64,000 nt of DNA from an uncultured bacterium (GTDB taxonomy: Bacteria; CAYJRR01), in contig CAYJRR010000002.1 in NCBI GenBank assembly GCA_964372275.1, forward strand, positions 16,522 through 80,521, written 5' to 3'. Shown here piece after piece: positions 3,348-30,000 of this stretch. The stretch's first letter is position 1. Each line of letters begins with the position of its first letter. A program made the position numbers and the translations under genes. The notes beneath the pieces are model-generated. The model was not told the origin of the DNA, made no database searches, and saw only the letters and a list, made by a program, of their open reading frames with translations.

Positions 3348-3384
3348 GAGTCGGTCTGCCCATCCCGGCGCGCGAACGCGCGGG

Positions 3385-12064: not shown

Positions 12065-12078
12065 CGCCTCGAGCGTCA

Positions 12079-12266: not shown

Positions 12267-12273
12267 TGCCGGC

Positions 12274-13851: not shown

Positions 13852-14271
13852 ATGAAGCGAACCAACGTCTCGTCCGGCGCCAAGTGGGAGTCGATCGTCG
13901 GCTACTCCCGGCTCGTCCGCGTCGGAGACCGGATCTACGTGACCGGAACGACGGCGACCACGCCGGAAGGCGGTCGCGTCGGAGACGGCGATGCGTATGC
14001 GCAGGCCTACCAGGCGCTTCGCAACATCGAGCGCGCCTTGGGACAGGTGGGCGGGACGCTTCGGGACGTCGTCCGGACCCGGCTGTTCGTGACCGACATC
14101 CGGCGCGATTGGGAAGCCGTCGGGCGTGCGCACGCGGAGCTGCTCGGCGCGGTTCGACCCGCGACGTCGATGGTCGAGGTCGCACGCCTCATCGAGGACT
14201 GGATGCTGGTGGAGATCGAAGCCGACGCGGTGCTCGGCGCGACGGTCGAATCAGGAGACCGGGGGACGTAG
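13852..14271 (+). CDS. RidA/YjgF-like family protein
   Basis: 139-aa product inside track ORF 13540..14271, in frame. Motifs: SIVGYSRLVRVGDRIYVTGTTA..AYAQAYQALRNIERAL..RTRLFVTDI..ATSMVEV. Confidence 0.8.
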   Translation: MKRTNVSSGAKWESIVGYSRLVRVGDRIYVTGTTATTPEGGRVGDGDAYAQAYQALRNIERALGQVGGTLRDVVRTRLFVTDIRRDWEAVGRAHAELLGAVRPATSMVEVARLIEDWMLVEIEADAVLGATVESGDRGT

Positions 14272-16533
14272 CGATCGGGGAGCGTCGCCCAAGGGGGCGA
14301 CCGGGACCTCGATGCTGGGGTCGGAGTCGGTCGGAGGGAGCGGGCGCGGGGCGATCGACGACCAGAGGGTGGTGCGGTTCCGGCCGTTCTCCTTGGAGCG
14401 GTAGAGCGCCTGGTCGGCGCGGTCGAGGAGGCGGGCCTTCAACTCGGTGGCCGAATCATGCGGTTTGGGGGAACCAGCGTCGCCGGGCCAGGCCGCGATC
14501 CCGGCGCTCATCGTGATGCGGAAGGTCGTCCCCTTGTGCTCGAACTCCTCGCGGGCGATGGCGGCGCGCACCTTGTCGATCACCGCCGCGGAGCTGGCGC
14601 CATCGCTGTCGGCGAGGACGACGACGAACTCCTCCCCGCCGTACCGGGCGATCAGGTCGGTCTTCCGCTGCAACGTGGCGCGCAGCACCTTGCTCACCCG
14701 CCGGAGGACCTCGTCGCCGGTCGGATGGCCGTATTTGTCGTTCACTTTCTTGAAGTGGTCGATGTCGGCGAGCACCAGCGAGAAGCGGGTCGACGGATTG
14801 CGTTGGGCCCGCTCGATCTCGCGGGTGAACGCCTCCTGGAAGTAGCGGTGGTTGTGCAGGCCGGTCAGCCCGTCGGTCGTCGCCAGCTCCTCCATCCGCC
14901 GGAAGAGCGCCGCGCTCGACATCGACATCGCCGTCTGTCGCGAGACGTTCTCCAGGAGGTCGAACTCGTCCTTGGTGAAGGCGTCGCGCGTCATCGAGGC
15001 GAAGACGCAGGCGCCGAGCGCGTCCCCCGTCTCGGGGCGGAGCATCGGGAAGATCAGCGCCGCCCGGACGCCGGCAGGGTCGAGGCGGGCGCCGATCAGC
15101 GGCGTCTTCACCGTGCGCGCCTGGAATCCGGGAGCGTTGAGGTAGACGCGATTGCGCAGCACCCAGCCGACCAGCGTCTCGCCGGTCGGCGCGTCCTTTC
15201 CGAGCAGCCGTCCCTCGTCGATCCCGGACGCGTTGCCGATCGTGAACCGCTCCCCTTCGGCTGCGCCGAAGACGACGAGCGCGCAGTCGATCTGCGCCAG
15301 CTTCGACGCCGACCGCAGCGCCTCCAGGCCGATCGCCTCCGGCCGGAGCTTCCCTTGCAGCGCCTTCGAAACCTCCAGCAGGTGTCGATGCTGGTCGGAG
15401 AGCTTCTCCCGCCGCTCGCGCTCGCGCCCGGCGTTCTCCAGCTCCCGGAGGAGACGTCCGATCCCGAGCAGGATCTCGGCGGCGGCCTTGCCGTAACGGT
15501 CGGCCTCGAGGTGGTCGGCGACGAGAAGCCCCGTGACCCAGTTCCCTTCGACGATCGGCGCAACCACCACCGACCGCACGCCGACCTCCTTGCGGTAGTA
15601 GGCGACCGGCATCGCCTTCACGTCGTTGAGGACGATCGGCTGGCGATTCTTGATCGCGCCGGCAAAAAACCCTTCGCGCGGGTCGAGCGGCGTCTCGACC
15701 AGGTCGTCCCCCTCGCTCAAGGCGTCGGCGACGACGAGCCGTTCGTTGCGCGCGTCGCAGCGGAAGTAGACGACGGTGTGCGCCGAGAGCGTGTCGCGAG
15801 CCAGGCTCACGGCGCGGTGGATCGACGCGTCGAGCTCGTTCTGCAGCTCGCGCAGTCGGCGCTCCCGCTCCTGCGCCAACAGCCCCTTCTCCTCCTTCAG
15901 GTCCTCCACGTCGTCGGTCTCGGCCGCGAGCGCCTCCGACGCCCCCTGGAAACGCGACAGCCGCCGGGCGGCGTCGATCCGCGCCTGCCGCTCGAGTCGC
16001 AGGAAGGCGCCGACCACCGATGCGAAGGAGAAAAGCATCGCGGCGTGCGTCAGCAGCAGCGGTGCGTAGTCGCGCAAAGCCCCGGCGGCGAAGACCGGAA
16101 GCCCTTCGAGCAGCGCCGCCAGACCGGCGAGCAGCAGCGAGGAGGTCAGGTCGGTGTGTGCGGCCATCAGCGCCAGCACCAGGAAGAGGACCGGGTAGAG
16201 CAGGGAGTGGGTCCCGCCGGTCGCCTGGACCACGATCGTCGCCAAAAGCACCATCAGGCTGCCGACCTCCAACCCGTCGCGCCGAGAGGGGGCCGTCCCC
16301 TCCTCGCGGGTGGCGATGCGGAGCATCTTGGCGGCGGCGATCCCGAGGAGGACGGCGGTCACCAGCAGCTTGGAGGTGTCGAGCGCCGAGACGAACCCCT
16401 CCCCCTGCGACGGCCTGAAGAAGCCGAAGGCGACGAGCGCGCCGTAGATCAGCGCCGTCCCGCCGTAGATCGGCGAGGTGCGCCGCTGGATCCGGCGCGG
16501 CGTTTTCAACCTCGTGGTGTTCATCGACGGCAT
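14251..16533 (-). CDS. Membrane-anchored GAF-GAF-GGDEF diguanylate cyclase
   Basis: 760-aa ORF. N-terminal multi-TM region, a coiled segment and two GAF-like regions. GGDEF domain: LVLADIDHFKKVNDKYGHPTGDEVL..RYGGEEFVVVLAD..ADQALYRSKENGRN. Confidence 0.85.
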   Translation of the reverse strand: MPSMNTTRLKTPRRIQRRTSPIYGGTALIYGALVAFGFFRPSQGEGFVSALDTSKLLVTAVLLGIAAAKMLRIATREEGTAPSRRDGLEVGSLMVLLATIVVQATGGTHSLLYPVLFLVLALMAAHTDLTSSLLLAGLAALLEGLPVFAAGALRDYAPLLLTHAAMLFSFASVVGAFLRLERQARIDAARRLSRFQGASEALAAETDDVEDLKEEKGLLAQERERRLRELQNELDASIHRAVSLARDTLSAHTVVYFRCDARNERLVVADALSEGDDLVETPLDPREGFFAGAIKNRQPIVLNDVKAMPVAYYRKEVGVRSVVVAPIVEGNWVTGLLVADHLEADRYGKAAAEILLGIGRLLRELENAGRERERREKLSDQHRHLLEVSKALQGKLRPEAIGLEALRSASKLAQIDCALVVFGAAEGERFTIGNASGIDEGRLLGKDAPTGETLVGWVLRNRVYLNAPGFQARTVKTPLIGARLDPAGVRAALIFPMLRPETGDALGACVFASMTRDAFTKDEFDLLENVSRQTAMSMSSAALFRRMEELATTDGLTGLHNHRYFQEAFTREIERAQRNPSTRFSLVLADIDHFKKVNDKYGHPTGDEVLRRVSKVLRATLQRKTDLIARYGGEEFVVVLADSDGASSAAVIDKVRAAIAREEFEHKGTTFRITMSAGIAAWPGDAGSPKPHDSATELKARLLDRADQALYRSKENGRNRTTLWSSIAPRPLPPTDSDPSIEVPVAPLGDAPRSLRPPVS

Positions 16534-16570
16534 CGATCGGCCACGGACGGGATCGGTCGGACGGGGACGT

Positions 16571-16846
16571 TCACTCGGGGGGGAACCGGTAGACGGTTTC
16601 GCCTTCGCGCACGACCCCCTGGCTCTCGCGGGCGACGCGCTCCAGGTATGCGTCGTCCTCGTGAAGGCGGCGGACGTTCTCGCGGAGGCGGGCGTTCTCG
16701 GATTCGATCGACTCGGCCTTGACGCGCAGGCGCGCCTCCTCGGCGCGTAGCCGCCGGATCGCGAGCAGGCCCCGGTCGCCGAACGCGGAGGAGATCCCGA
16801 GGATGGTCATCAGCGCGGCGGCCCCGGCGAAGGCGAACCGTTTCAC
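16571..16846 (-). CDS. ftsB: Septum formation initiator (FtsB/DivIC family)
   Basis: The GTG at 16846 overlaps the rimO TGA (GTGA). 91-aa product with a TM helix (FAFAGAAALMTILGISSAF), a coiled coil (LRAEEARLRVKAESIESENARLRENVRRL) and the ..YLERVARESQGVVREGE motif. Confidence 0.65.
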   Translation of the reverse strand: MKRFAFAGAAALMTILGISSAFGDRGLLAIRRLRAEEARLRVKAESIESENARLRENVRRLHEDDAYLERVARESQGVVREGETVYRFPPE

Positions 16847-18315
16847 GAGAGGATCGTCCCAACCCGGGTGGTGCGCGGCGCGGCCCCCCCGGCGTGTTCC
16901 AAGTCGTGGTGGTGCGGAACCGCATCGCACGCCGCCTCCTGGCGCGGGAGGAGGCGCACCGGCTCGGCGTCGTCGCGCGGACCCCGGACGATCCCCCCCA
17001 CGAGGTCGTGCGCGTGGGTCTCGGCGATCTTCACGGGGACCAGGTCCCCGGCCTTGGCCTTCCCTTCGTTGACGTAGACGACGCCGTCGACGTCGGGGGC
17101 CTGCGTCGCCATGCGGCCCACGAGCAGGTGCTCGGTCTCCGGCGAGACGCCGTCGACGAGGACGGTCACCGTCTTGCCGCGGAGCTTCTTCAGGCGCGCC
17201 GCCGAGATCTTCTCCTGGCGCTCCATCACGCGGCGGCGCCGGTCCTCCTTGACCTCCGGTGGGACGTCGTCCTCGAGCTTCGCCGCCGGCGTCCCCTCTT
17301 CGTGCGAGTAGGTGAAGCAGCCGACGTGGTCGAACTTCGTCTCGACGAGGAAGTCGAGCAGCTCGTCGAACTCCGAGTCCGACTCTCCCGGGAAGCCGAC
17401 GATCACGCCGGTGCGAAGCGCGGCGCCCGGGATCGCCCGGCGAAAATCGCGGATCACGCGGCGGATCCCGCCGGCCGTCACCGAGCGGTGCATCGCCCGG
17501 AGCACGCGGTCGCTCGCGTGTTGGATCGGCATGTCGACGTAGGGGACGACCTTCGGCAGCTCGGCGAAGGCGCGTACCAGCCGCGCGGTCACCTTGTCGG
17601 GATACATGTAGTGGACGCGGATCCAGCGAAGCTCCTCGATTCCGTCGAGCCGGGAGAGGAGCTCCGGCAACGCGTCCGGAACCCCCAGGTCGCGGCCGTA
17701 GTCGGTCGAATCCTGGGCGATGAGGTTGATCTCGCGCACGCCGCCCGCGGCGAGGCGGCGCGCCTCGGTCACGACGTCGTCGACCGGGCGGCTGCGCAGC
17801 GGTCCGCGCAGCTTCGGGATGATGCAGAAGGCGCAGCGCGTCGAGCAGCCTTCGGCGATCTTGAGGAAGGTGGAGTGACGGCGCCCGGTCGCCACGCGCG
17901 GCGTCGCGTGGTCGTAGAGGAACTTCGGCCGGCGGAAGAATCCGCGCGCCTTCGGCCTCTCCCGGAGGACCTCGGCGATTCGCGGGAACTCTCCCGTGCC
18001 GAGGAAGTAGTCGACCTCCGGAAGTTCGGCCATCAGTTCGTCGGGGTAGCGCTGCGCGAGGCAGCCGGTCATCAGCAGCGTCTCGCAGCGGCCGCGTTCC
18101 TTGTAGTCGGCCATCTCCAGGATCGTGTCGACCGACTCCGCCTTCGCCGACTCGACGAAGCCGCAGGTGTTCACCACGATCACGTTCGCCTTCGCCGGGT
18201 CGTCGGTGACGGAGTAGCCGGCCTCGGTGGTCAGCCCGAGCATCACCTCGCTGTCGAGGAGGTTCCTCGCACAGCCGAGGCTCACGAAGTGGATGGAGCG
18301 TCCCTTTGGCGACAT
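16843..18315 (-). CDS. rimO: Ribosomal protein S12 methylthiotransferase
   Basis: N-terminus IHFVSLGCARNLLDSEVMLG..VIVVNTCGFVESAK, radical-SAM CSTRCAFC and a TRAM-like C-terminus. About 50 aa of low-complexity C-terminal extension. Confidence 0.9.
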   Translation of the reverse strand: MSPKGRSIHFVSLGCARNLLDSEVMLGLTTEAGYSVTDDPAKANVIVVNTCGFVESAKAESVDTILEMADYKERGRCETLLMTGCLAQRYPDELMAELPEVDYFLGTGEFPRIAEVLRERPKARGFFRRPKFLYDHATPRVATGRRHSTFLKIAEGCSTRCAFCIIPKLRGPLRSRPVDDVVTEARRLAAGGVREINLIAQDSTDYGRDLGVPDALPELLSRLDGIEELRWIRVHYMYPDKVTARLVRAFAELPKVVPYVDMPIQHASDRVLRAMHRSVTAGGIRRVIRDFRRAIPGAALRTGVIVGFPGESDSEFDELLDFLVETKFDHVGCFTYSHEEGTPAAKLEDDVPPEVKEDRRRRVMERQEKISAARLKKLRGKTVTVLVDGVSPETEHLLVGRMATQAPDVDGVVYVNEGKAKAGDLVPVKIAETHAHDLVGGIVRGPRDDAEPVRLLPRQEAACDAVPHHHDLEHAGGAAPRTTRVGTILS

Positions 18316-18394
18316 TCCGGCCCTTTTACGACGGCACCGCCATCGTATCCGACCACCAGGCGCATAAGCAACCGAATTTGCTGCATTATTCTGA

Positions 18395-18423
18395 TTGATT
18401 TCGACGTAAAATTATGCATAATT
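18395..18423 (+). promoter_or_regulatory. Candidate sigma-70 promoter of ftsK overlapped by a 14-bp perfect palindrome
   Basis: TTGATT (18395-18400) - N16 - CATAAT (18417-18422). The palindrome AATTATGCATAATT (18410-18423) covers the -10 box. It lies in a 70-bp island of about 34% GC (hand count, 18361-18430). Confidence 0.45.
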
Positions 18424-18474
18424 AAACTCCAGCCAGATCGCGCGCCCGACGGCGCGCGCGACGGGGAGGTCGCG

Positions 18475-20976
18475 GTGGGTCGAGCAAGGGCGTTGGCGGA
18501 CGCGCGCGCGTCCGGGGATGAACGGGAGACGAGCCGGCTTCGCGAAGCGGCCGGCGTGCTGTCGGCCGCCGCCGGCGCCTACGCGCTCGTCAGCCTCCTG
18601 AGCTACCACCCGTTCGATCCGTCGTTCAACTCGAGCGTCGCCCGCGGCGCGGTGCAGAATGCGGGCGGCGTCGTCGGCGCGTACCTGGCCGATCTGCTGG
18701 TGCAGCTCCTCGGCGTCAGCAGCTATTCGGTCGTCGCGCTGGCGTTCGCCACCGGCGCGCGGTTGATCTTCGGGCGTCCGGTCGCCGTGCGAGGCGAGCG
18801 CGGTCTGGCCTCGGCGGGATTGCTCGTCGCGGCGTCGATCCTCCTTCAGCTTTGGTTCGGTCCGGTGACCATGGGCGGGCACCGTGTCCCGGCGGGGGGG
18901 CTGCTCGGCCACGCGCTCGCCGAGTTCCTCGTCCGGTGGATCGACGTGACCGGCAGCTTCCTGCTCGCGTCGTCGATCCTGGTCGTCTCGTCGATGGTGC
19001 TCACCGGGACCCGCGTGTCGGACCTGTTGGTGCGCGGCGCGGCCGAGGCGGCGAAGGCCTGGCGATGGGGAAAGAAGGAGTGGATCGCGTATCGCGCGGC
19101 GTCGGCGCCCGCGGGCAGAACGGCGGAGCGAAAGAAGATGGAAAAGCCGGCGCGGCGGACGAAGCCGGGCGACGTCGCGCCATCGGCGGACGACGACGCG
19201 GCGGAGGAGGCGATCGACGAGTTCGAGCCGTCGATGCTCGACATCGTGCGGCAGGGGGCGGCGGAGGAGGCGGCGCAGCGGCTCGGTGTGGCGGTGGAGG
19301 GGCCGAGGATCGTGGCGCCGGGTGTGTATGGAGGGAGGAAAGGAAAGGGGAAGGAGGAGGAGAAGGAGAAGCTCAAGGAGAAGGAGCAGGAGAAGGAGAA
19401 GGGGAAAGGGAGAGAGAAGGGGTTGGAGGTTCCGGCGCCGGTGGAGGGGGTCTACGCGCTGCCGTCGATCGAGCTGTTGGAGAGCGAAGACCAGAAGCCG
19501 ATGCAGATCGACGCCGAGGCGCTGAAGAGCACGGCGGAGGTGCTGGAGAGGAAGCTGAAGGACTTCGGCGTCTTCGGGCGGGTGGTCGAGGTCCATCCGG
19601 GGCCGGTGATCACCATGTTCGAGTTCGAGCCGGCTCCGGGGATCAAGGTGAACCGGGTGTCGAACCTGGTCGACGATCTGAAGATGGCGATGAAGGCGAC
19701 CTCGGTGCGGATCGTCGCGCCGATCCCGGGGAAGGGGACGGTCGGGATCGAGATCCCGAACGACCACCGCGAAATGGTCTACCTGAAAGACATCCTCGCC
19801 AGCGCGGAGTTCACCGAGCGCGCGACGATGACGCCGATGGCGCTGGGAAAGGACATCGCCGGAAAACCGGTGATGGCGGACCTCGCGAAGATGCCGCACC
19901 TGCTCGTCGCCGGCACGACCGGGTCGGGCAAGTCGGTGTCGGTCAACGCCATGATCCTCTCGCTCCTCTACCGCTCCACGCCGAACGACGTGCGGATGGT
20001 GATGATCGACCCGAAGATGCTCGAGTTCAGCATCTACGACGGGATCCCGCACCTGCTGCTGCCGGTGATCACCAACCCCAAGAAGGCGGCGATGGCCCTC
20101 AAGTGGGCGGTCACCGAGATGGAGCGGCGGTACCGCCTGCTCGCCGACGTCAACGCCCGCAACATCGCCGCTTACAACAAGCGGATCCCCCGGATCCTCG
20201 AGGAGCGGAAGCGCGAGGCGGTCGATCAGACGGCCAAGAACGACCCGATGGACGGCGCGCCCTCGATGGAGGCCCAGGCCGAGGAGGCGGCGAAGCCCCT
20301 CGAACACGGCCATCTCCCCTACATCGTGATCGTCATCGACGAGCTCTCCGACCTGATGATGATCGCCAAGAACGAGGTGGAGGAATCGATCACCCGGCTG
20401 GCGCAGATGGCGCGCGCCGCCGGGATTCACCTCCTGATCGCGACCCAACGGCCGTCGGTCGACGTCATCACGGGCCTCATCAAGGCGAACTTCCCGGCGC
20501 GGATCGCGTTCCGCGTCCTGTCGAAGATCGACTCGCGCACCGTGCTCGACGCCTCGGGGGCGGAGGCGCTCCTCGGCGACGGCGACATGCTCTTCCTCCA
20601 GCCGGGAACGACCCGCATGAGCCGCGTGCACGGCGCGTTCGTCTCCGACACCGAGATCCAGCGCGTCGTCGACTTCCTGAAAGCCCAAGGGAAGCCGCAG
20701 TACGAGGAGGAGATCCTGCGCGCGTCGCTCGCCGCCGACGCCGGGACGGAAGGGAGCGTCGACGAGGAGGCCGACGAGCTCTACGACCAGGCGGTGGCGA
20801 TCGTGGCCGAGAGCCGGCAAGCCTCGATCAGCTACATCCAGCGCCGGCTCAAGGTCGGCTACAACCGCGCCGCCCGGATGATCGAGCGGATGGAGACCGA
20901 AGGGATCGTCGGCGCCAGCGACGGCGTCAAACCGCGCCCCGTCCTGGTTCAACACATCCCCGGCCCACAGCCCTAG
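18475..20976 (+). CDS. ftsK: DNA translocase FtsK
   Basis: GTG start with GGGGAGG upstream, in frame within track ORF 16894..20976. 4-TM N-terminus and a variable linker. Motor motifs LVAGTTGSGKSVSVN and IVIVIDELSDLMM. Gamma domain SISYIQRRLKVGYNRAARMIERME. Confidence 0.9.
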   Translation: MGRARALADARASGDERETSRLREAAGVLSAAAGAYALVSLLSYHPFDPSFNSSVARGAVQNAGGVVGAYLADLLVQLLGVSSYSVVALAFATGARLIFGRPVAVRGERGLASAGLLVAASILLQLWFGPVTMGGHRVPAGGLLGHALAEFLVRWIDVTGSFLLASSILVVSSMVLTGTRVSDLLVRGAAEAAKAWRWGKKEWIAYRAASAPAGRTAERKKMEKPARRTKPGDVAPSADDDAAEEAIDEFEPSMLDIVRQGAAEEAAQRLGVAVEGPRIVAPGVYGGRKGKGKEEEKEKLKEKEQEKEKGKGREKGLEVPAPVEGVYALPSIELLESEDQKPMQIDAEALKSTAEVLERKLKDFGVFGRVVEVHPGPVITMFEFEPAPGIKVNRVSNLVDDLKMAMKATSVRIVAPIPGKGTVGIEIPNDHREMVYLKDILASAEFTERATMTPMALGKDIAGKPVMADLAKMPHLLVAGTTGSGKSVSVNAMILSLLYRSTPNDVRMVMIDPKMLEFSIYDGIPHLLLPVITNPKKAAMALKWAVTEMERRYRLLADVNARNIAAYNKRIPRILEERKREAVDQTAKNDPMDGAPSMEAQAEEAAKPLEHGHLPYIVIVIDELSDLMMIAKNEVEESITRLAQMARAAGIHLLIATQRPSVDVITGLIKANFPARIAFRVLSKIDSRTVLDASGAEALLGDGDMLFLQPGTTRMSRVHGAFVSDTEIQRVVDFLKAQGKPQYEEEILRASLAADAGTEGSVDEEADELYDQAVAIVAESRQASISYIQRRLKVGYNRAARMIERMETEGIVGASDGVKPRPVLVQHIPGPQP
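19331..19439 (+). repeat. GA-rich repeat tract inside the FtsK linker (in frame)
   Basis: Encodes GRKGKGKEEEKEKLKEKEQEKEKGKGREKG. Contains the 21-mer AAGGAGGAGGAGAAGGAGAAG (19351-19371), identical to 12182-12202. Confidence 0.7.
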
Positions 20977-20978
20977 CC

Positions 20979-20999
20979 GCCGGCCGCACAGCGGCCGGC
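20979..20999 (+). terminator. GC hairpin immediately after the ftsK stop
   Basis: GCCGGCCGC-ACA-GCGGCCGGC, a 9-bp stem, starts 3 nt after the TAG and is followed by TT only. At best a weak intrinsic terminator. Confidence 0.4.
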
Positions 21000-21096
21000 T
21001 TGATCGAGTGATCGCGCAGCCGACGGCGTAGCACGTCTGCCGATCCCATCCCCTTTTCTTCCCTCCTCTCCCCGCTCCGTCTGCTCCTTCTCCTCG

Positions 21097-21132
21097 AACC
21101 TCCTCACTTCTCCTCCTCCTACTCCTCACCGC
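21097..21132. repeat. Left 36-bp perfect inverted-repeat core
   Basis: AACCTCCTCACTTCTCCTCCTCCTACTCCTCACCGC is the exact reverse complement of 21560-21595. Confidence 0.9.
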
Positions 21133-21214
21133 CTCTCCTCACCGTTACGCGTCTTCGCCCACGCACCATCGCCCCTCCCCCGACCTCGGCACTCTTCGAG
21201 CAAGGCCTGTCGGG

Positions 21215-21598
21215 ATGTCTTTCATTGCCTCGGAACGCGCCCGGTCCGCCCTTCGCGAGCTGCCGCCGCTTGTGGAGAAGATTCGTTCTCGCGACAACGA
21301 CCTCGCCGCCCAGATCCTCTTCGCGGCCCAGAGCGCTGCGCTCAATCTCGAGGAAGGATCCTGGAAGAGCGGGAGAGATCGCTCGAATCGATATCGCATC
21401 GCTGCCGGGAGCGCGTCGGAAGCGCGGATTGGGCTACGGATCGCGGCGGCGTTGCGCTATGTCGGGGAGCTGGAGATCGCGAAGGCGGTAGGCTACTTGA
21501 ATGAAGTTCTCGCGATTTTGGGGAAGATTCTCGGGTTCGAACGACAAGGGGAAGGGGTAGCGGTGAGGAGTAGGAGGAGGAGAAGTGAGGAGGTTTGA
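21215..21598 (+). CDS. Four-helix-bundle protein (23S rRNA intervening-sequence protein family)
   Basis: 127-aa ORF with the family signature ..AAQSAALNLEEGSWKSGRDRSNRYRIAAGSASEARIGLRIAAALRYV.. The last 13 codons (AVRSRRRRSEEV) are encoded by the right repeat arm. Confidence 0.8.
   Translation: MSFIASERARSALRELPPLVEKIRSRDNDLAAQILFAAQSAALNLEEGSWKSGRDRSNRYRIAAGSASEARIGLRIAAALRYVGELEIAKAVGYLNEVLAILGKILGFERQGEGVAVRSRRRRSEEV
21560..21595. repeat. Right 36-bp perfect inverted-repeat core
   Basis: GCGGTGAGGAGTAGGAGGAGGAGAAGTGAGGAGGTT ends 1 nt before the TGA of the enclosed ORF. Confidence 0.9.
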
Positions 21599-21728
21599 GG
21601 AGGAGGAGTAGGAGCAGGGGGAAGGAAAGAGAAAGAGAAGCGTTAGGGGGTAGTCCGGCGCTCATGACGAGGAGAGGCTATTTTCGGAGACCCGGCCAGC
21701 GGGCCGCGCTGGTTGTCTTCAGAACGCT

Positions 21729-22658
21729 ATGAGAGCTTGGCAAACGATGGGTGGCCGCGCAGCGGCGTTGTCGGTGATTTCAACCGCGCTACTGGCCGAG
21801 GCATGTGGCGATGCTGCCGTGGCGGAAGTCGGGATGCGATGGTCGGGAATCGTCGGGGGGGAGTTGGACGACGCGCACCCGGCGGTCGTCTACATCGCGG
21901 AGAGCGGGTTCAGCTGCTCAGGGGCGCTGGTCGCGCCGACGATCGTCCTCACGGCGGGGCACTGCACCTACGATGGCGATCCCGCCCACTACACCGTTTC
22001 GGGCGGGGTCGAGGCACGCGATCTGCCGGACTGGACGCGGGCGGTGACGGCGGTCGTTCAGAACACGGCCTACGATCCGGTGAACCTGCGGCACGACGTC
22101 GGGCTCCTCTTCCTCGACGAGGAGCCGCCCGTCGAGCCGATCCCTTGGCTCCGGGGACGCGACGACGGGCGCTACGAGGACGGGACGCCGATCGTCGCGG
22201 TCGGGTACGGCACCGCGGGCGGCACGCAGGGGGACGACCGCGGCACGCGGCGTCGGGTGGAGATGGAGATCCTGAAGGCGACGGAGTCGAAGTTCCGGTT
22301 CGGCGGAGACGGGGAGAACGTCTGCTCGGGCGACTCCGGCGGGCCGATCCTCGCCGAGGTGGAGGGGCGCGAGACGATCGTCGGCATCGCCGCCGCCGCC
22401 GACGAGGCGTGCGCGGAGGTCGGAATCGCCATGCGCACCGACGACAACGCGGAGTTCCTCGCGCCCTACCTCCCGGAGGAGGAGGGCGACGGCGGAGGGG
22501 GCGGCGGGCGCGGCTGCCGCGTCGCCTCGGCGACGGCGCGCCGCGGCCCTCCGTACGCGTCGGCCGTCGGCCTGCTGGCCGCGGTCGCCGCGTCCTGCTT
22601 CGTCACGCGACGGCGAGCAGTTCGACCTCGAAGACCAGGGTCGAGTGGGGCGGGATGA
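21729..22658 (+). CDS. Trypsin-like (S1) serine protease with MYXO-CTERM-like C-terminal tail
   Basis: Signal/lipobox STALLAEAC and mature-type IVGG. Catalytic triad TAGHC / RHDVGLLFL / GDSGGP. Tail: GGGGGGRGC..AVGLLAAVAASCFVTRRR. Confidence 0.8.
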   Translation: MRAWQTMGGRAAALSVISTALLAEACGDAAVAEVGMRWSGIVGGELDDAHPAVVYIAESGFSCSGALVAPTIVLTAGHCTYDGDPAHYTVSGGVEARDLPDWTRAVTAVVQNTAYDPVNLRHDVGLLFLDEEPPVEPIPWLRGRDDGRYEDGTPIVAVGYGTAGGTQGDDRGTRRRVEMEILKATESKFRFGGDGENVCSGDSGGPILAEVEGRETIVGIAAAADEACAEVGIAMRTDDNAEFLAPYLPEEEGDGGGGGGRGCRVASATARRGPPYASAVGLLAAVAASCFVTRRRAVRPRRPGSSGAG

Positions 22659-22920
22659 CGGGCGGATATCCGCGTGCGCCGTACGCCAGCTCGGGCGGGA
22701 TCGTCAGCTTGCGGATGCCGCCGACCTTCATTCCGGCGACCCCCTGGTCCCAGCCCTGGATCACGTCGCCGGCGCCGAGGGAGAACTCGAACCCCTCGTT
22801 CCGGTCGCGCGAGCTGTCGACCTTCTTCCCGTTGGTGAGCGTCCCGACGTAGTGCACCGTCACGCTCTTCCCGGCCACCGCTTCGGCCCCCGTTCCGACC
22901 TTCAGTTCCTCGATCTTCAT
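22603..22920 (-). CDS. FKBP-type peptidyl-prolyl cis-trans isomerase
   Basis: 105-aa product MKIEELKVGTG..VTVHYVGTLTNGKKVDSSRDRNEGFEFSLGAGDVIQGWDQGVAGMKVGGIRKLTIPPELAYG, in frame in track ORF 22603..23610. Confidence 0.9.
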   Translation of the reverse strand: MKIEELKVGTGAEAVAGKSVTVHYVGTLTNGKKVDSSRDRNEGFEFSLGAGDVIQGWDQGVAGMKVGGIRKLTIPPELAYGARGYPPVIPPHSTLVFEVELLAVA

Positions 22921-22995
22921 GGGCGAGGCATACCACGCCAGTCGAATGGAGCGCCCCCACATTGCGTTTCTACGGGCAAGGGGTAGGGTGCCGCC

Positions 22996-23733
22996 ATGCT
23001 CACCGTGACGACCGTTCGATGCCTCGCCGCCGCGACGATCCTCGGAGGAGGAGCGGCGGCGACCGGTGCCGCACCGAACGTGACCGCGACCCCTGCGCGC
23101 GTGCCGGCACCGGTCGCGACGGCCACGCCGCCCGCCGCGGCGGCCCCGGCCGGATTGGTGGCGCGGGTGCAGCGCGCGTACGAAGGCATGCGCCACTACG
23201 CCGCGGAGTTCGACCAGGTCACGCGGCTCAAAGGGGCGCGCGCCGGGGCGGAATCGGGCGGCCGCGTCTGGTTGCAGAAGCCCGGTCGGATGCGGTGGGA
23301 GTTCGAGCGGCCGGAGAAGAAGCTGTTCGTCTCGGACGGGAAGTCGATGTGGATCTACGAGCCGTCCGAGAACCAGGTGATCGTCACCGAATCGGTCGCC
23401 TCGTCGACGTCGATGACGGCGCTGAACTTCCTCGAAGGGCTGGGCTCCCTCGAGCGTTCGTTCGACGTCGCGACCGCCGAACCGCCTGCCGAAGCGGCCG
23501 GGAAGGATCTCGCCTTCCTGGTCCTCACGCCGAAGCCGGAGTCGGACGTGCAGTACTCGCGGATCCTCCTCGGCGTCGATCCGAAGTCGGCGCTGGCGCG
23601 CGAGGTGCACCTCGTCGACGCGCTCGGAAACGCCACCCGGCTGGTGTTCCGCAACGCCACCACCGCGGCGAAGGGACCGCCCGACGGATTCACCTTCGCC
23701 ATCCCACCGGGAGCCGAGGTGATCCGACCGTAG
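22996..23733 (+). CDS. lolA: Outer-membrane lipoprotein carrier protein LolA-like
   Basis: 245-aa ORF with a signal peptide and an Ala/Pro-rich linker. LolA-type pattern: F.Q...L..A......GRVWLQKPGRMRWEFERPEKKLFVSDGKSMWIYEPSENQV. Confidence 0.75.
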   Translation: MLTVTTVRCLAAATILGGGAAATGAAPNVTATPARVPAPVATATPPAAAAPAGLVARVQRAYEGMRHYAAEFDQVTRLKGARAGAESGGRVWLQKPGRMRWEFERPEKKLFVSDGKSMWIYEPSENQVIVTESVASSTSMTALNFLEGLGSLERSFDVATAEPPAEAAGKDLAFLVLTPKPESDVQYSRILLGVDPKSALAREVHLVDALGNATRLVFRNATTAAKGPPDGFTFAIPPGAEVIRP

Positions 23734-23784
23734 GACGGCCTGGCCGCCTCCACGCTCCCGCGCGGGACGGTGGCCGGTTTCGGG

Positions 23785-24507
23785 TCAGCCCCAGGCCGCG
23801 TCGTCGGGATCGACCGCCACCACCAGATCGAGCTGCCGGGCGAGCTCGGCGTGGCGGATCAGGAGGCCGACGTCGACGGCGATCCTCTCCGGCGAAACGT
23901 CGGTGATGGCGGCGGCGCGCCGGACCTCCTCCGATCCGATCGAGCACAGCTCGTCGAGCAGGTCGACGGAAACGTTCCGTATCCGTGCGCGTGGAAGCAG
24001 TTGCCAGGTGATCGGGTAGGGCTTTCCGACGTCGAGGCACAGGGGGCTTGTCGCGGCCAACCGCAGGTCGTGGCCGCAAGCCCGACCGAGTGCACCGAGG
24101 AGCGCGCCCGGCCCGGCGTCGGCGCAGAGCCGCGCCTCCGGCCACGGCGGCGTGACGAGCGCCGTCCAGAGTCGGACCAGGTCCTCGTAGACCGACCAGC
24201 CGTCGAGCCGCGCCTCGGGGTCGTCGCCGAGCGACTCGCGCAGCGCGCGGTCGCCGGGAAGGAGCTCCGCGGTTCGCCCGAGACGCGCCATCGTCGCCTC
24301 GAAACGCGCGACATCGAAACGGCGACGTTCCTCGAGCCGCGGTCCCTCGCCGGGAACGAACGGCTCGCGGGCTCCGAACCCGCCGCGCGGGTCGGCTTTT
24401 GCCCGCACGTCGCCGGCCCAGGCTTTGGCCTCGGCGAAGCCCTCGCGCCAGGGCGCCTGCTGCGCGATCCGGATCAGCGCTTCGTAGTCGTAGGCAAGGA
24501 GTCGCAC
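23785..24507 (-). CDS. Hypothetical protein
   Basis: C-terminal 240 codons of track ORF 23785..27390, with normal composition. The first plausible start is a GTG at 24507, which overlaps the upstream gene by 34 nt, so the start is uncertain. No recognised family. Confidence 0.45.
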   Translation of the reverse strand: MRLLAYDYEALIRIAQQAPWREGFAEAKAWAGDVRAKADPRGGFGAREPFVPGEGPRLEERRRFDVARFEATMARLGRTAELLPGDRALRESLGDDPEARLDGWSVYEDLVRLWTALVTPPWPEARLCADAGPGALLGALGRACGHDLRLAATSPLCLDVGKPYPITWQLLPRARIRNVSVDLLDELCSIGSEEVRRAAAITDVSPERIAVDVGLLIRHAELARQLDLVVAVDPDDAAWG

Positions 24508-25292
24508 GCGTCGCCCGCGCCATAGCACGGCAGTTCGAGCCGCGCCACCAGCGGGAGGTGGTCGCTCGCGGTCCGGGCCGGTCCGCGACGGAGTGGACGG
24601 CAGTGCACGACCCGGACGTCGCGGCTGACGTAGACGTGGTCGACCCGGAACAGCGGGAACCGGGCCGGGTAGGTGGCGGCGCGCCGGTCGAGGAGCGCCG
24701 CGTCCTGGTATCGCGCTCGGAGCGCGCGCGTATCGCGTCCGCGGAACCAGTCGTTGAAATCTCCGCCGAGGACCGTCGGCCGCCGCTCCCCCTCCAGCAC
24801 GGCGTCGACCAGGTGCGCCGCCTGTCGCGCGCGCTCGCCGTGGAGCAGGCCGAGGTGAGCCGATCCCGCCAGGAGGTCGACGCCGGGCAGCTCGATCCTC
24901 GCGAGCAGGCACCCGCGCGGCTCCGGTCGCACCGTCCATCCGTGCGCGGCCAGCGCCGTCCCGATCCGTCCCGGGACCGACAGGTCGTGGTTCTCCCAGC
25001 TCGCGATCGGATACCGGGAGAGGATGGCGTTCCCGTAGCGGTAGCGGCCGCCGCGCCACACCACGTTCGGCGCGAAGGCCACAACCCCGTAGCCAAGCAG
25101 ATCGGCGATCGCCGTCAGCGGATCGCGGGCGCGGTCGCCCTCGATCCGTCCGACCTCCTGGAGGGCGATCACGTCGGCGCCGGTCTCGGCGATCGCCGCC
25201 GCGACCCGCCGCGCGTCGAACGTGTGCAGGAATCGGTGGCCGGCGTGGATGTTGTAGGTGGCGAACGTCACCGCGGCGTGGAGACTCGGCAT
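24474..25292 (-). CDS. Endonuclease/exonuclease/phosphatase (EEP) family protein
   Basis: 272-aa ORF with motifs TFATYNIHAG, DVIALQEV, GGDFNDW and ASDHLPLVARLEL. Confidence 0.8.
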   Translation of the reverse strand: MPSLHAAVTFATYNIHAGHRFLHTFDARRVAAAIAETGADVIALQEVGRIEGDRARDPLTAIADLLGYGVVAFAPNVVWRGGRYRYGNAILSRYPIASWENHDLSVPGRIGTALAAHGWTVRPEPRGCLLARIELPGVDLLAGSAHLGLLHGERARQAAHLVDAVLEGERRPTVLGGDFNDWFRGRDTRALRARYQDAALLDRRAATYPARFPLFRVDHVYVSRDVRVVHCRPLRRGPARTASDHLPLVARLELPCYGAGDACDSLPTTTKR

Positions 25293-25328
25293 CGTCGGCC
25301 GGCCACGCTAGCACCCGCCGCCGCGCGC

Positions 25329-26948
25329 TCAATCGGCGGCGGCGGGCGGGGGGACGCGCCGGTTCGGCTCCGGCCGATAGCGGACGAAGAACCGGTGCAG
25401 CTCCTCCGGCCGGCGCACCGCGCGGAAGTCGAACGGCGCATCGCGCGGGTGGATCACGAACCCTTCGATCTCGTCGGCCCCGATGCCGCCGTGGCTTCCG
25501 AACTCCCAGGAGAAGGCGACGGTCGTCGATCCGCCGTTCCCGTAGAGGACGAGGTCCCCCGCCGAGGGCATGGCGATCACCCGGCGCAGGTAGCCGGCGA
25601 GCACGTCGGCGCGCGCGGCGAATCCGGGGATCTCGCGGAGGCGTTCCGCGACGCGCCCGTCGTCCAGCCGGATCACCCGATCGCCGGCGATCAGCATCGG
25701 TCCGTGCTCGCCGCGCGCGAGGAGGAACGGCACGGCGCCCGACCGGCGCAGCGCCTCCACGATCTTCGGCTGGAGGGATCGGGCCTGTTCGAAGGTCGCC
25801 GGCGCCTCGATGTCGGTGAAGTAGAGGTGGGCGATGTCCCCGGCGTCGACGATCTGAACGCCGGCGGGAGGCGTGGCGGCGGTCCGCGCCCGTTGGTGGA
25901 CGATCCATCCGACCGGCGGCACCAGGCGATCCCCGAGCGCGCGAAGCCGCGCGTGGCGTTCCGCCGACCGCTCTCCTTCCGCCGCGGCGCACAGGAACGC
26001 GGGGAGGTCGCGCCCGTCGAGGGCGGCGAAGGGGACGGCGTCGACCATGCCGTGATCGGCCAGGACGAAGACGTCGTATCCCATCTCCGGCCAGGCGGCG
26101 GCCGCCGCGAAGATCGTCTCCGCCGCTCGGTCGGCCGAGCGGAGGAATCGCATCGCCAGCGGCGATCGCGGTCCGCGGCGGTGGCCGATCTCGTCGTAGT
26201 CGACGATGCAGGTGTAGACGATCGGAACGCCGTGGGCCATGTCCCCCACCGTCCCCCAGACGGCGAACTCCCAGAGCGGGATCGATGTCAGGAGGCGCAT
26301 TCCGAGCAGGCGCCATTCCCAGTCGAAGCGCCCGACCTTCGTCGCCCAGCGGAGACCGTCGGCGATCGACGGGCCGACTTCGAGCGCGGCCCGCCCGAGG
26401 AGGCGCACCCCGAGCCCGCCGAGCGCCAGCGCCGCGAGTCGCGGTTCCCAGTGGCGGAAGCCGACGTTCCATTGCATCGTCGACACCCGCGCCAGGTTCA
26501 GCGCCGGGGCAGCGGCCCCGCCGGCGAAGAGCGTCGTGTAGGAGGTGCCGCCCGCGAGCAGCCCGGGGTCGCCGTTCGCGTGGCGCCGCTCGATCCGCTT
26601 CGCGTCGGCGGAGCGGTCCATCCGCACGTGGCGACGCCGGCGCTTGTCGTACCAGAGGTAGCCCGGCACGTCGTCGACCCTTCCGTAGAGGAATCCGGCC
26701 TGGAAGGCGGAGGTCGACGCGGGGGCTCCGACCAGGTAGGCCGAGCAGCGGTGGGTGCCCTCCTCGAGCAGGCGGGCGAGGAACGGCGCATGCCCCTCGC
26801 GCATCGCCGCGCAGAGCGCGCCGTGCGAGACGCCGTCGAGGTGGACGATCACCGCGCGGCGGCCGCACGCTCCGGCGGGCTGCCGCCGCCGAGCGGGCGC
26901 CATCCCGGCCGTGGCGAGCCAGCGCGTGAGCCGGCGGAAGCGGTCCAC
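25329..26948 (-). CDS. Alkaline-phosphatase-superfamily protein (nucleotide pyrophosphatase/phosphodiesterase-like)
   Basis: 539-aa ORF with a GTG start. Motifs: VIVHLDGVSHGAL, PASTSAFQAGFLYG, DYDEIGHRRGP and VLADHGM. Confidence 0.7.
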   Translation of the reverse strand: MDRFRRLTRWLATAGMAPARRRQPAGACGRRAVIVHLDGVSHGALCAAMREGHAPFLARLLEEGTHRCSAYLVGAPASTSAFQAGFLYGRVDDVPGYLWYDKRRRRHVRMDRSADAKRIERRHANGDPGLLAGGTSYTTLFAGGAAAPALNLARVSTMQWNVGFRHWEPRLAALALGGLGVRLLGRAALEVGPSIADGLRWATKVGRFDWEWRLLGMRLLTSIPLWEFAVWGTVGDMAHGVPIVYTCIVDYDEIGHRRGPRSPLAMRFLRSADRAAETIFAAAAAWPEMGYDVFVLADHGMVDAVPFAALDGRDLPAFLCAAAEGERSAERHARLRALGDRLVPPVGWIVHQRARTAATPPAGVQIVDAGDIAHLYFTDIEAPATFEQARSLQPKIVEALRRSGAVPFLLARGEHGPMLIAGDRVIRLDDGRVAERLREIPGFAARADVLAGYLRRVIAMPSAGDLVLYGNGGSTTVAFSWEFGSHGGIGADEIEGFVIHPRDAPFDFRAVRRPEELHRFFVRYRPEPNRRVPPPAAAD

Positions 26949-27025
26949 CGCGATGCCCCTGCTCCGCCGCGGCCCGGACGCAAATTCGCAAAATCGAAGC
27001 CGCCGGGAGTAGGCTTGACGGTCGC

Positions 27026-30000
27026 GTGGACGGGCGGGTCATCGCCGGAAAATACGACCTCCTCCGCAAGTTGGGGGCGGGCGGGATGGCCGAAGTCTTC
27101 CTCGCGCGGCAGCGCGGCGTCGCCGGCTTCGAGAAGCTGGTGGTGGTGAAACGGATCCTGCCCCACCTCGCCGAGAACGCCGAGTTCGTGACGATGCTCC
27201 AGGCCGAAGCGCGGGTCGCCGCCGACCTGCGGCACCCGAACGTCGTCAGCGTCAACGAGGTCGGGGTCGACGACGGCGTCTGGTACATCGCCATGGAGTT
27301 CCTCGACGGGCACGACCTGGCGCGCGTCCTGCGCGAGAGCGCCGTCAAGGGGGTCCCGATCCCGTTGGAGGTCGCGGTCCAGATCGTCATCGCTTCGGCG
27401 CGAGGGCTGCACTACGCCCATCAGAAGAAAGATCTTCGCGGGCAACCTTTGAACATCGTTCATCGCGACGTCTCTCCGAAGAACCTCCACGTCACCTACG
27501 ACGGGATCACCAAGGTTCTCGACTTCGGGATCGCGCGCGCGGTGAGCACGCTTGGCGAGACCGGCGCCGGGATGGTGAAGGGGACCTTCAACTATCTCTC
27601 TCCCGAGCAGGCGATGGGGGGCGCGCTCGACGCGCGCTCCGACCAGTTCGCGCTCGGGATCGTGCTCCTCGACGTCACCACCCTGTCGGCGACGATGGGG
27701 AAGAAGCGCGAGGTTCCGATCTTCCGTCAGGCGTTCGACGGCGCGTTGAAGCGGCCGTCCTCGATCGTCGAGGGATACCCGCGCGGTCTGGAGGAGGTCG
27801 TCCTCCGATCGCTCCGCCTGCGGGTGGAGGACCGGTTCGCGAGCCTCCAGGAGATGGCGAGCGCGCTCGAGTCGTTCCTCGAGGACGCCCGACTGCGGGG
27901 GTCGGAAGCGAAGACGTCCGAGTTCCTCGCGTCGCTCCTGCCGCGGCAGGAGATGGACCTGACGCTCCCGGTGGCCGAACAGGTCCCGGCGGCGCCGGCG
28001 CCGACGCGTATCGAGCCGACGCGCATGAGTCGGTCGAACCTGCCGGCGGAGGCGGGAACGCTCGTCGGCCGGAAGCGCGAGCTGGACGCGATCGCCTCGA
28101 CCTTCGCCGACGGCGCGCGGCTGGTGACCCTCCTCGGACCGGGCGGCGCCGGGAAATCGGCGGTCGCGCTCCACTACGGCGTCACCGCGCGACCGGCCTA
28201 CGCCACCGAAGGGGGCGTCTGGATCTGCGACCTGACCGAGGCGCGCGACGCCGACGGGGTGATCGCCAGCGTCGGCCGCGCGTTGAGCGTCTCGCTCGCG
28301 CCCGGCGCGAGCAGCGCCGACGCGGTGGCGCAGATCGGCCACGCGCTCGCCGGGCGAGGGAAGATGCTCGTCCTGTTCGACACCTTCGAGCACGTGGTCG
28401 GCGCCGGACCGCAGACCGTCGCCGCGTGGATGGGGATCGCCCCCGACGCGCGCTTCCTGGTCACCAGCCGCGAGCGCCTGAAGCTCGACGGCGAGCAGGT
28501 GATCGAGCTGTCGTCGCTCTCCCTCCCCCAGGAGGGGAGGCCGGTCACCGATTCCGAGGCGGTGCAGCTCTTCACCCAGCGCGCCAAGGCGGTGCGCGCG
28601 AGCTTCTCCATCTCCAAGGCCGACGAGCCGGTGGTGGCGCAGATCGTCCAGGAGCTCGACGGGATCCCGCTGGCGATCGAGCTCGCAGCGGCGCGGATGG
28701 CGGTGCTCACCCCGGCGAAGCTGTTGGAGCGCCTGCCGCGGCGGTTCGAGCTGCTCGCCGGCGCCAAGCGCGAGGTCTCGTCGCGGCAGGCGACGTTGCG
28801 TGGCGCGATCGAATGGTCGTGGAACCTGTTGCCGGCTTGGGAACAACGGGCGCTGGCGCAGGCGTCGGTCTTCCGCGGGGGGTTCAGCCTGGAGTCGGCC
28901 GAGGCGGTGATCGACCTCTCCGGCCTCGACGGCAGCCCGATGGTCTTCGACGTCGTGCAGTCGCTCCGCGACAAGTCGCTCCTTCGCGCCTGGGAGCCGC
29001 CGGACCTGCCGGGGGAGCTGAGGTTCGCCGCCTACGTCAACGTCCGGGAGTTCGCCGCAGAGAAGCTGGAGCAGTCGGGGGCACGGGCAGAGGCGGAGCG
29101 CCGTCACGCCGAGCACTTCGTGGAGGCCTCCGGTCCCTGGATCGCCGGGGCGAATCGTCGCGAGGGACTCGAGCTGCGCAAGCGGATCGCGCTGGAGCTC
29201 GACAACCTCCAGGAGCTGTTGCGGCGCGCGGGAACGCCGAACCCGAAGGCGCCGGCCGATCCGGCCACCCGGGCGGTGTGGGCGCTTCACGCGGCGCTGG
29301 CCATCGGCCAGATCGCCGCGCGGATCCCGATGAAGGCGCACCTGGCGAACCTCGACCTCGCCGTCGGCGCCGCGGCCCATGACGGAGTCGAACGGACGCT
29401 GCTCGCCCGCGTCCTGGAGATGCGCGGCCGCGCCCGCCGGCTCGCCGGCCGCGTCGACGAATCGCTCGAGGACCTGGAGGAGGCGAAGTCGCTCTCCCGC
29501 CAAGCCGGCGATCGGGCCCTCGAGGCGCAGGTGCTGGTGCAGGTCGGAACCAGCTTCCAGGCGAAGGGGGAGAGCGAGGACGCGCGGGAAGCGGTGCAGA
29601 AGGCGCTGCTCCTCGCCCGCGAGGCGAAGGACACCGAGCGCGAGGGGCTTGCCTTCGGCTACCTGGGCACGGTGCTCCACGTCTCCGGGGACCTCGACCG
29701 GGGGATGGAGTGTTACCAGCGCTCGCTGCACCTGCTCCGCTCCGCCGGGAACGTCTGGATGGAGGCGGCGATGAGCGCCAACTTCGGCGCCTTCCTCCTC
29801 CAGGTGGGGCGCTACGAGGAGGCGCGGGCGATCCTGCAGAAGGGGTTGCAGCTCGCGCGCGAAGTCGGCGAGCGGAACTTCGAGGCGAACGCGCTGGGCC
29901 TGATCGCGACGCTGTTCCACCTCCAGGAGCGGTACGAAGAGGCGTTGATCTTCTACGACCAGGCCTACGCCCTCCAGATCCAGACCGGCGTGATCCGCTC

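Follow-up and report, generated by a model that had tools for sequence, protein, structure and literature searches.

Introduction

The intervening sequences (IVSs) of 23S rRNA that carry S23p open reading frames (ORFs), of the Leptospira, Coxiella and Xanthomonas type, hold the gene of a four-helix-bundle (4HB) protein in the loop of a long inverted-repeat stem. The origin of the ORF-containing IVSs and the role of their 4HB ORF have been open questions since the early 1990s, and to our knowledge their suspected mobility has never been tested. IVSs have long been suspected of being mobile elements, and in the Coxiella IVS tandem 7-nt repeats adjoin the S23p ORF (PMC4990558). The subject here is a hairpin-enclosed gene of the same protein family, termed cassette A, which lies downstream of ftsK in the DNA of an uncultured bacterium (assembly GCA_964372275.1, contig CAYJRR010000002.1, positions 16,522 to 80,521). 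This stretch of 64,000 nt is called the window, and positions in it are counted from its first nucleotide. At this locus and in its relatives, the 4HB family is found outside rRNA and behaves as a discrete hairpin-bounded unit.

Four other kinds of described system bear on such a unit. In eukaryotes, foldback (FB) transposons end in long terminal inverted repeats (TIRs) of variable length that are made of short tandem sub-repeats, and their central loop occurs with or without coding sequence. Avd, the accessory protein of diversity-generating retroelements (DGRs), binds nucleic acid and a polymerase. The Correia repeat-enclosed elements of Neisseria, which are MITEs (miniature transposable elements bearing inverted repeats), measure 100–150 bp, have TIRs of ~26 bp, number hundreds per genome and carry no conserved gene. 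In Geobacter metallireducens, three classes (1–3) of multi-copy intergenic sites consist of paired 7–9 nt repeats on opposite strands at variable distance; they have been interpreted as IHF/HU binding sites, and a 4HB gene between the pairs is not mentioned (Aklujkar et al. 2009, PMC2700814).

Results

A 4HB gene between long inverted arms

Within positions 20800–21900, the end of ftsK at 20976 is followed by a short hairpin, a CT-rich stretch, the ORF at 21215–21598 and a GA-rich stretch. The CT-rich left arm of cassette A (21040–21148, plus strand) is a degenerate period-3/6 repeat with a perfect core at 21097–21132, and the core of the GA-rich right arm (21546–21660, plus strand) lies at 21560–21595. 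The 36-mer GCGGTGAGGAGTAGGAGGAGGAGAAGTGAGGAGGTT has exactly two sites in the window, one on the plus strand (21560–21595) and one on the minus strand (21097–21132), while none is expected by chance in 100 dinucleotide-preserving shuffles with up to three mismatches allowed. A repeat search extends the arm pair to 21059–21146 and 21546–21633, that is, to 88 nt at 80% complementarity with 399 nt between them, and a scan of the whole window ranks the arms as its strongest inverted repeat. When 21040–21660 is folded as RNA, the two ends pair almost continuously, at an energy of −323 kcal/mol compared with −266 ± 6.7 for shuffled sequences (z = −8.6). Cassette A thus shares with the IVSs an ORF enclosed in a long inverted-repeat stem. 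Its setting is different, as a search of the entire 64-kb window with Rfam brings no family, rRNA or other, up to its gathering score; the window therefore holds no rRNA. Neither a T-tract terminator (in 20900–21800) nor a sigma70-type promoter is predicted in the region of cassette A. An original prediction, made from the letters of the window alone, had described an exact 36-bp core with imperfectly pairing flanks, outside any rRNA, and had proposed the RNA fold as a check; all of this is borne out.

Directly 3′ of the ftsK stop codon and before the left arm lies a short GC-rich hairpin, GCCGGCCGC-aca-GCGGCCGGC (20983–21003), followed by TTGAT. It looks like a weak terminator of ftsK itself.

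The encoded protein

The ORF at 21215–21598 (plus strand) encodes a 4HB protein of 127 amino acids, which scores above the curated cut-offs of both PF05635 (37.2 bits, cut-off 33.8) and TIGR02436 (39 bits, cut-off 24). Its AlphaFold (AF2) model, made for the monomer and with a mean predicted local distance difference test score (pLDDT) of 88.6, consists of four helices (residues 2–24, 28–49, 53–79 and 85–106; pLDDT about 94–98). The top Foldseek matches are the solved S23/IVS-protein bundles 2RLD (template-modelling (TM) score 0.73/0.85) and 2GSC, followed by the DGR Avd structures 8UB7 and 4DWL at TM scores of about 0.7–0.8 and only 15–17% sequence identity. Profile scores and the predicted model together support membership in the IVS-protein/Avd fold family, to which the original prediction had assigned the ORF. 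A weak 4HB-like match elsewhere in the window (49024–49119) falls within a gene of 525 amino acids and is noise. No matches for the cassette or its protein were obtained with PADLOC or PHROGs, or among viral contigs, plasmids and phages, and there is no evidence of a role in defence or in phages.

Between the window and its closest relative, locus L001 (below), the ratio of nonsynonymous to synonymous substitution rates (dN/dS) is 0.06, at a proportion of synonymous differences (pS) of 0.65, with synonymous sites near saturation. Judged by these substitutions, the gene is functional and under strong purifying selection, and neither cassette is a recent copy of the other.

The end of the ORF is a separate matter. 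Its conserved part stops near 21547, and homologs end with ...ILGFERKARG before the arm begins. In the window the stop codon (21596–21598) comes 1 nt past the right core, and the last 13 codons (21557–21595) lie inside the right arm. A TAG at 21558–21560, out of frame in the window, aligns with the stop codon of L001, and the window has one extra base in CGACAAGGGGAAGGGGTAG relative to CGAAAGGCGAGGGGGTAG of L001; this base puts the ancestral TAG out of frame, so that translation runs 13 codons into the arm. The arm-encoded tail is modelled with low confidence (pLDDT 50–59). The final codons are therefore repeat-derived in position, as had been pointed out, but they are not conserved: the arm-derived C-terminus is real as such, yet probably an accidental product of an apparent 1-nt insertion or deletion.

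The same unit at another site and empty sites in relatives

Few close relatives of the 4HB protein were found. The closest (86% identity) is encoded at L001, in assembly GCA_040960215.1, where the gene lies between bacterial microcompartment (BMC)-shell and aldehyde dehydrogenase genes on one side and an unrelated gene on the other, not near ftsK. Its arms are homologous CT/GA arms of 70 nt at 83% complementarity. Nucleotide homology (blastn) joins window positions 21051–21633 to L001 positions 3104–3687, which is exactly arm, ORF and arm with nothing beyond. The neighbouring genes are not the same: the window has ftsK and a trypsin-like gene, L001 BMC-shell and aldehyde dehydrogenase genes. 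The homology stops at the outer arm ends, which makes the arms the ends of the shared unit and gives it TIRs, as expected of a mobile element. A more distant protein, at 57% identity, is encoded at L002 between arms of different, C-rich and G-rich sequence. In L005, from a Myxococcaceae metagenome-assembled genome (MAG), the protein is 51% identical and the arms measure 87–89 nt; the 20-mer AGGAGTAGGAGGAGGAGAAG is identical in the L005 arms and the right arm of the window. The arm modules of L002 (1684–1741 and 2265–2320) are in non-nested order (X-Y ... X′-Y′), so a single simple hairpin could not accommodate the two pairings at once.

The ftsK site itself is empty in relatives. The four nearest FtsK relatives (79–85% identity) keep the arrangement of rimO on the minus and ftsK on the plus strand, and have neither a cassette nor CT/GA runs 3′ of ftsK; instead, the next gene follows 60–100 nt past ftsK and is lolA (L196 and L198) or another gene (L197 and L199/L200). 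L196 comes from the same assembly as L001, so that genome has the cassette elsewhere and an empty ftsK–lolA junction. In the window, about 2 kb between ftsK and lolA (20977–22995) are lineage-specific and comprise the cassette, a trypsin-like protease gene (21729–22658, by Pfam) and an FKBP gene (minus strand, within ORF 22603–23610, with the Pfam domain at the C-terminal end). The suggestion that this was a formerly mobile cassette passes the comparison it invited: relatives lack the whole cassette at this locus, and none has the ORF there without the repeats.

An ORF-less hairpin downstream of ssb

A scan for purine and pyrimidine runs located a second hairpin, at about 12080–12270 and without an ORF, which is termed hairpin B. 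Its CT-rich left arm (12080–12160, plus strand) starts 16 nt past the stop codon of ssb (12062–12064) and its GA-rich right arm (12166–12270, plus strand) is a homolog of cassette A's right arm. The paired segments, 12096–12155 and 12183–12242, are 60 nt long and 82% complementary with 27 nt between them, and the window's other inverted repeats rank far below cassette A and hairpin B. The right arms of the two are about 82–86% identical over 64–75 nt and have GGAGAAGTGAGGAG-N6-GGAGGAGGAGTAGGAG in common. From this resemblance, the arms form a small family of repeats, of which A is the form with a gene and B the empty one. Further copies of the repeat, a search for which had been suggested, are thus seen in the form of hairpin B and of the complete arm-ORF-arm unit of L001, but the exact 36-mer has no third copy in the window.

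Among all the relatives compared, the CT/GA hairpin is absent from the site downstream of ssb, where a gap of 35–90 nt contains the hairpin and T-tract of an ordinary intrinsic terminator. Two of these relatives have, 3′ of ssb, an ortholog of the gene found there in the window (50% and 37% identity). Neither a T-tract terminator (in 11950–12400) nor a sigma70-type promoter is predicted at hairpin B. Hairpin B could be either a MITE-like derivative of the cassette or a hairpin that has not been occupied.

A GA-rich stretch within ftsK (19320–19432), which encodes a low-complexity linker of FtsK rich in K and E, resembles the arm sequence. It has 21 nt in common with the right arm of hairpin B, and over 84 nt it matches the reverse-complemented left arm of L001 at 76% identity. 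The likeness may be a compositional coincidence, or the stretch may have been a recombination partner.

How the arms have changed

RNAalifold applied to the four arm pairs of A, B, L001 and L005 gives a common stem of 59 bp, in which 15 pairs are kept through changes on both sides. Within cassette A the core is paired at 36 of 36 positions, compared with about 80% identity between elements. A stem selected as RNA should favour G·U mismatches on the transcribed strand. Among the arm mismatches of 14 elements, 37 are G·U on the sense strand, 49 are G·U on the antisense strand and 123 are neither (p = 0.24), a distribution that offers no support for strand-specific selection on the stem as RNA. 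It fits a symmetric constraint at the DNA level, whether on TIRs or through concerted evolution of the arms, and is also compatible with cleavage of read-through RNA by RNase III, which prefers perfect duplexes.

A promoter-like motif in the loop

The motif GGCAC-N7-GCA (21188–21202, plus strand; GG-N10-GC in its simplest form) ends exactly 12 nt before the ATG of the 4HB gene and is a putative promoter. In an alignment of upstream regions, GGCAY-N7-GCA is invariant in position and core bases in the window, L001, L002 and L005. It occurs at this place only in these four of 67 loci, where about 0.013 per locus would be expected by chance. GG-N10-GC is the spacing of the −24/−12 elements of sigma54 promoters, and the motif can be read as a sigma54-like promoter of a leaderless mRNA. 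If that reading is right, the spacing would place the transcription start 1–2 nt before the ATG, hence the leaderless form, and the position of the motif inside the loop would give the gene's own transcript the right arm only.

The wider 4HB family in Myxococcota

A protein-pattern scan that took one genome per species returned 71 loci, nearly all from Myxococcota MAGs, with a few from Bdellovibrionota/Oligoflexia and other contigs. Several genomes have 4–6 copies of the 4HB gene, and many copies lie at contig ends. Paralogs at different loci of one genome are 89–100% identical, and the 4HB copies appear from such identities to have proliferated recently in Myxococcota MAGs. Flanking inverted repeats score above all of 215 shifted-position controls in 17% of the loci and above the 95th percentile of the controls in 34%. 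In the majority of loci where flanking repeats are strong, 6-nt tandem repeats in inverted arrays make up the arms; their unit is not constant between loci and is (CGCCCG)n, (GGAGTC)n of about 200 nt, (CGGTGK)n, (GGCGTG)n or (GACTCC)n. Within 500 nt of a 4HB gene, period-6 arrays reach 0.78 per kb, about 12 times their density in the remainder of the loci (0.062 per kb). They do not overlap the ORF; their orientation is inverted at some loci and direct at others, and at many they are found downstream only.

Two copies in one Sandaracinus MAG (L036 and L042) are built differently. They have in common a 744-nt unit at 93% identity with its own 20-bp TIRs, GTGGTTCTCATCCTGACGCG / CGCGTCAGGATGAGAACCGCAC. 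Each unit lies within a hexamer array whose repeat is identical on either side of it, yet one copy has (GAGTCG)n and the other (CACCGA)n. The arrays at these two loci are therefore the target, or were made at insertion, and are not cargo. Any target-site duplication would be hidden within the hexamer array, and the TIR motif was not found at the other loci. At L047, the space between two genes of an operon on the opposite strand is taken up by a cassette with arms of ~200 nt. At L056, one hexamer unit (of the CGGACT type) occurs in every intergenic gap of a 4.7-kb locus (862–1110, 2732–2820, 3288–3398 and 4526–4695), and hexamer arrays appear to be a general intergenic feature in some Myxococcota.

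Several further arrangements were seen in this set. L016, L017 and L018 (about 2317–3216) contain a ~900-nt palindrome of two inverted 4HB genes that are about 70% identical; L017 and L018 are copies at 99.7% identity that lie on a single contig with 420 kb between them. Elsewhere a second, more divergent 4HB gene lies near the first, often in opposite orientation (L036, 3778–4211; L025, about 1500–1940; L027; L034), so the cassettes cluster. Tandem arrays with a period of 21 or 42 nt, a repeat class distinct from the hexamers, adjoin 4HB cassettes in Polyangiaceae-type and other uncultured deltaproteobacterial MAGs (L022, 503–992; L023, 2304–2689; L025, 2350–2656; L027, 2301–2621; L028, 567–948). 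A weak 4HB-like match follows long arrays of 7- or 8-nt tandem repeats, such as (GGAACCC)38, in L059, L065 and L075, which are labelled as Klebsiella or Enterobacterales MAGs; for such sequence the taxonomic labels look doubtful.

Discussion

A proposed translocatable cassette with foldback arms

Cassette A is a discrete unit that is present or absent at orthologous sites, its gene is under selection and the complementarity of its arms has been maintained. Presence and absence at orthologous sites are accompanied by occurrence of the unit at non-orthologous ones (A, B and the Myxococcota paralogs), the pattern by which mobile elements are recognised. With moderate confidence, the locus can be read as a low-copy translocatable cassette of the IVS type, in which a selected 4HB gene and a promoter-like element are bounded by long inverted arms of the foldback kind. 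The whole arm-gene-arm block would have been placed at different chromosomal sites in related genomes, and ORF-less derivatives such as hairpin B would persist as MITE-like foldback hairpins. The landing sites would be intergenic DNA just downstream of genes, after the terminator-like hairpin of ftsK for cassette A and at the position of the relatives' ssb terminator for hairpin B. The arms may act at the DNA level as TIRs, or as a foldback structure, for a mobilising activity that could be supplied in trans or by the 4HB protein itself, if this binds nucleic acid. The gene would be transcribed from the sigma54-like motif as a leaderless mRNA, while read-through RNA that spans both arms may fold into a duplex of 36 bp or more that RNase III would cut, by analogy with the IVSs of 23S rRNA and with Correia elements.

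Several observations weigh against this account. The ftsK–lolA site has also gained two other genes, so that presence and absence are clear there but a clean single-element footprint is not. Copies are few: the 64 kb of the window have two hairpins, and about 58 kb of DNA from close relatives yielded the L001 cassette alone. GGAGAAGTGAGGAG-N6-GGAGGAGGAGTAGGAG, with its 30 specified bases, is absent from 185,579 representative genomes, among which the source species and its close kin are not included. A metagenome scan with the arm-core 20-mer returned at least 120 loci, and the 80 examined, judged by high GC content, a 4HB homolog and a convincing partner arm, had none of these and were only unrelated low-complexity DNA. 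Inspection of the junctions identified no target-site duplication, as no convincing direct repeat flanks A, B or L001, and a Pfam scan found no transposase, integrase or reverse transcriptase (RT) in the cassette or within about ±8 kb of it. In global alignment, the identity of arms between elements is only about 2 standard deviations above composition-matched shuffles; this signal is weak because the arms are effectively a two-letter sequence, and the case for their homology rests on shared complex motifs and BLAST matches. Differential loss of ancient paralogs could mimic transposition. The evidence as a whole comes from few MAG contigs.

Arms as element ends or as a host hairpin

A less probable account, though one that retains some weight, is that the arms are a pre-existing host hairpin of inverted short-repeat arrays, perhaps grown from a terminator, and that a smaller 4HB module was inserted in its loop. 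Hairpin B would then be the unoccupied target and cassette A the occupied one. Hairpin B, with its loop of 27 nt, does sit where relatives have a terminator hairpin, and classic IVSs are likewise found at hairpin tips of 23S rRNA (PMC4990558). The enrichment of period-6 arrays near 4HB genes points in the same direction, as does their occurrence between unrelated genes in L056. L036 and L042, where a unit with its own TIRs lies in differing arrays that are target rather than cargo, show on the evidence of their sequences that this mode exists in the 4HB family. Against its application to cassette A, the window and L001 agree in their inner junctions and are homologous without a break across arms and gene although they are at different loci, and L005 keeps arms with an identical 20-mer core at only 51% protein identity; arms and gene have therefore long been inherited together in this subclade. 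Nor are TIRs or duplications seen at the inner arm/loop junctions of A, and a single empty hairpin is known. Since arms and gene share junctions and were co-inherited down to that level of protein identity, we prefer, with about even confidence, to regard the arms as the ends of the element rather than as a host hairpin that was hit.

A possible role at the RNA level

It is unlikely, though conceivable, that the role of the stem lies primarily in RNA, such that the arms pair in transcripts, RNase III cuts them and the cassette is excised or insulated in the manner of a 23S rRNA IVS, with mobility at most a thing of the past. Processing by RNase III had been raised as a possibility in the original prediction. 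The perfect 36-bp duplex, extended to 88 nt, would be a textbook substrate of RNase III, the fold is far more stable than those of shuffled sequences and stem pairs have been kept through two-sided changes. Family precedent exists in the excision by RNase III of IVSs that carry this ORF (PMC4990558), and Correia elements are cut or bound by the same enzyme (PMC2649163). The L047 cassette, placed between operon genes of the opposite strand, is also suggestive, as looping out would spare the operon transcript. Nevertheless, neither strand shows a G·U bias, and non-wobble mismatches are in the majority. With the conserved promoter-like motif placed in the loop, the mRNA of the gene itself would include a single arm, and the terminator-like hairpin of ftsK precedes the left arm. 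Some family members, moreover, have direct or one-sided arrays that are unable to form a stem.

Evidence against an orphan retroelement gene or a chance palindrome

That the gene is the remnant or orphan avd of a DGR is very improbable. The idea draws on the predicted fold, which matches the Avd structures 8UB7 and 4DWL, and on PF05635 being the commonest accessory family near DGR reverse transcriptases (PMC10053308). However, there is no direct repeat of at least 40 nt in 14000–30000 and hence no template/variable pair, and no RT is encoded among the neighbours within about ±8 kb (rimO, ftsK, trypsin, FKBP, LolA, an EEP nuclease and a phosphodiesterase in the Pfam scan). In addition, the best structural matches, 2RLD and 2GSC, are non-DGR S23/IVS proteins, and no relatives occur in viral contigs, phages or plasmids. 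A DGR remnant at this locus is effectively refuted by the lack of both an RT and template/variable repeats, in agreement with the original prediction, which had noted neither nearby. Finally, although the arms are low-complexity CT/GA sequence and a GA-rich stretch recurs in the ftsK linker, the notion of a chance palindrome or an ordinary terminator beside an unrelated small gene has negligible probability and is refuted by the recurrence of arm, gene and arm in independent genomes (L001, L002 and L005), by the zero matches expected from shuffles, by the lack of a predicted T-tract terminator and by a stem many times longer than that of a terminator.

Comparison with known systems

A literature search brought up the IVS, Correia and Geobacter precedents but no account of 4HB cassettes that stand free within a hairpin, nor of a link between such cassettes and hexamer arrays, which is weak evidence of novelty, as most subscription journals lie outside such a search. 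For experiments, the locus offers junctions of insertion, putative ends, a putative promoter and a protein under strong selection. A broader proposition, which is doubtful at present, is that 4HB genes mark an unrecognised class of bacterial foldback-type mobile elements that insert into, or build, hairpins and short-period arrays. The IVSs of 23S rRNA would be a special case in which the hairpin hit was the tip of an rRNA helix, and the 4HB protein would serve the element as a mobility factor of its own that binds hairpins or repeats, in concert with a polymerase or nuclease that is the host's or acts in trans. If so, the 89–100% identical copies of Myxococcota would make the class experimentally tractable.

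Among described systems, the 23S rRNA IVSs are the nearest in protein family, in fold and in the placement of the ORF in the loop of a long inverted-repeat stem, and the 7-nt repeats of the Coxiella IVS parallel the short-repeat arrays seen beside 4HB genes here. Cassette A is not itself a member, as these IVSs are defined by their location in helix 25 or 45 of 23S rRNA, whereas the cassette is intergenic, follows protein-coding genes, has repeat-built arms of ~100 nt and keeps a conserved promoter-like motif in its loop. Correia elements are likewise intergenic, bounded by inverted repeats, polymorphic for insertion between relatives and foldable in transcripts, and hairpin B looks like a MITE of the Correia type; the cassette differs from them in its low copy number, in its ~100-nt arms of short-repeat sequence and in a full-length form that carries a selected gene. 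The paired sites of Geobacter, which are ORF-less and hairpin-like, are a partial precedent for hairpin B, with unrelated sequences. The likeness to FB transposons is one of architecture only, since these are eukaryotic and unrelated in sequence. DGR Avd proteins have the same four-helix-bundle fold at low sequence identity, in a setting of RT and template/variable repeats that the cassette lacks. By analogy, the likeness suggests a nucleic-acid-handling role for the 4HB protein, and the relation to a protein that binds nucleic acid and RT in DGRs is best taken as a lead, not as evidence. If the 4HB protein does bind the arms or arrays, this would bear on how the Avd proteins of DGRs came to handle nucleic acids.

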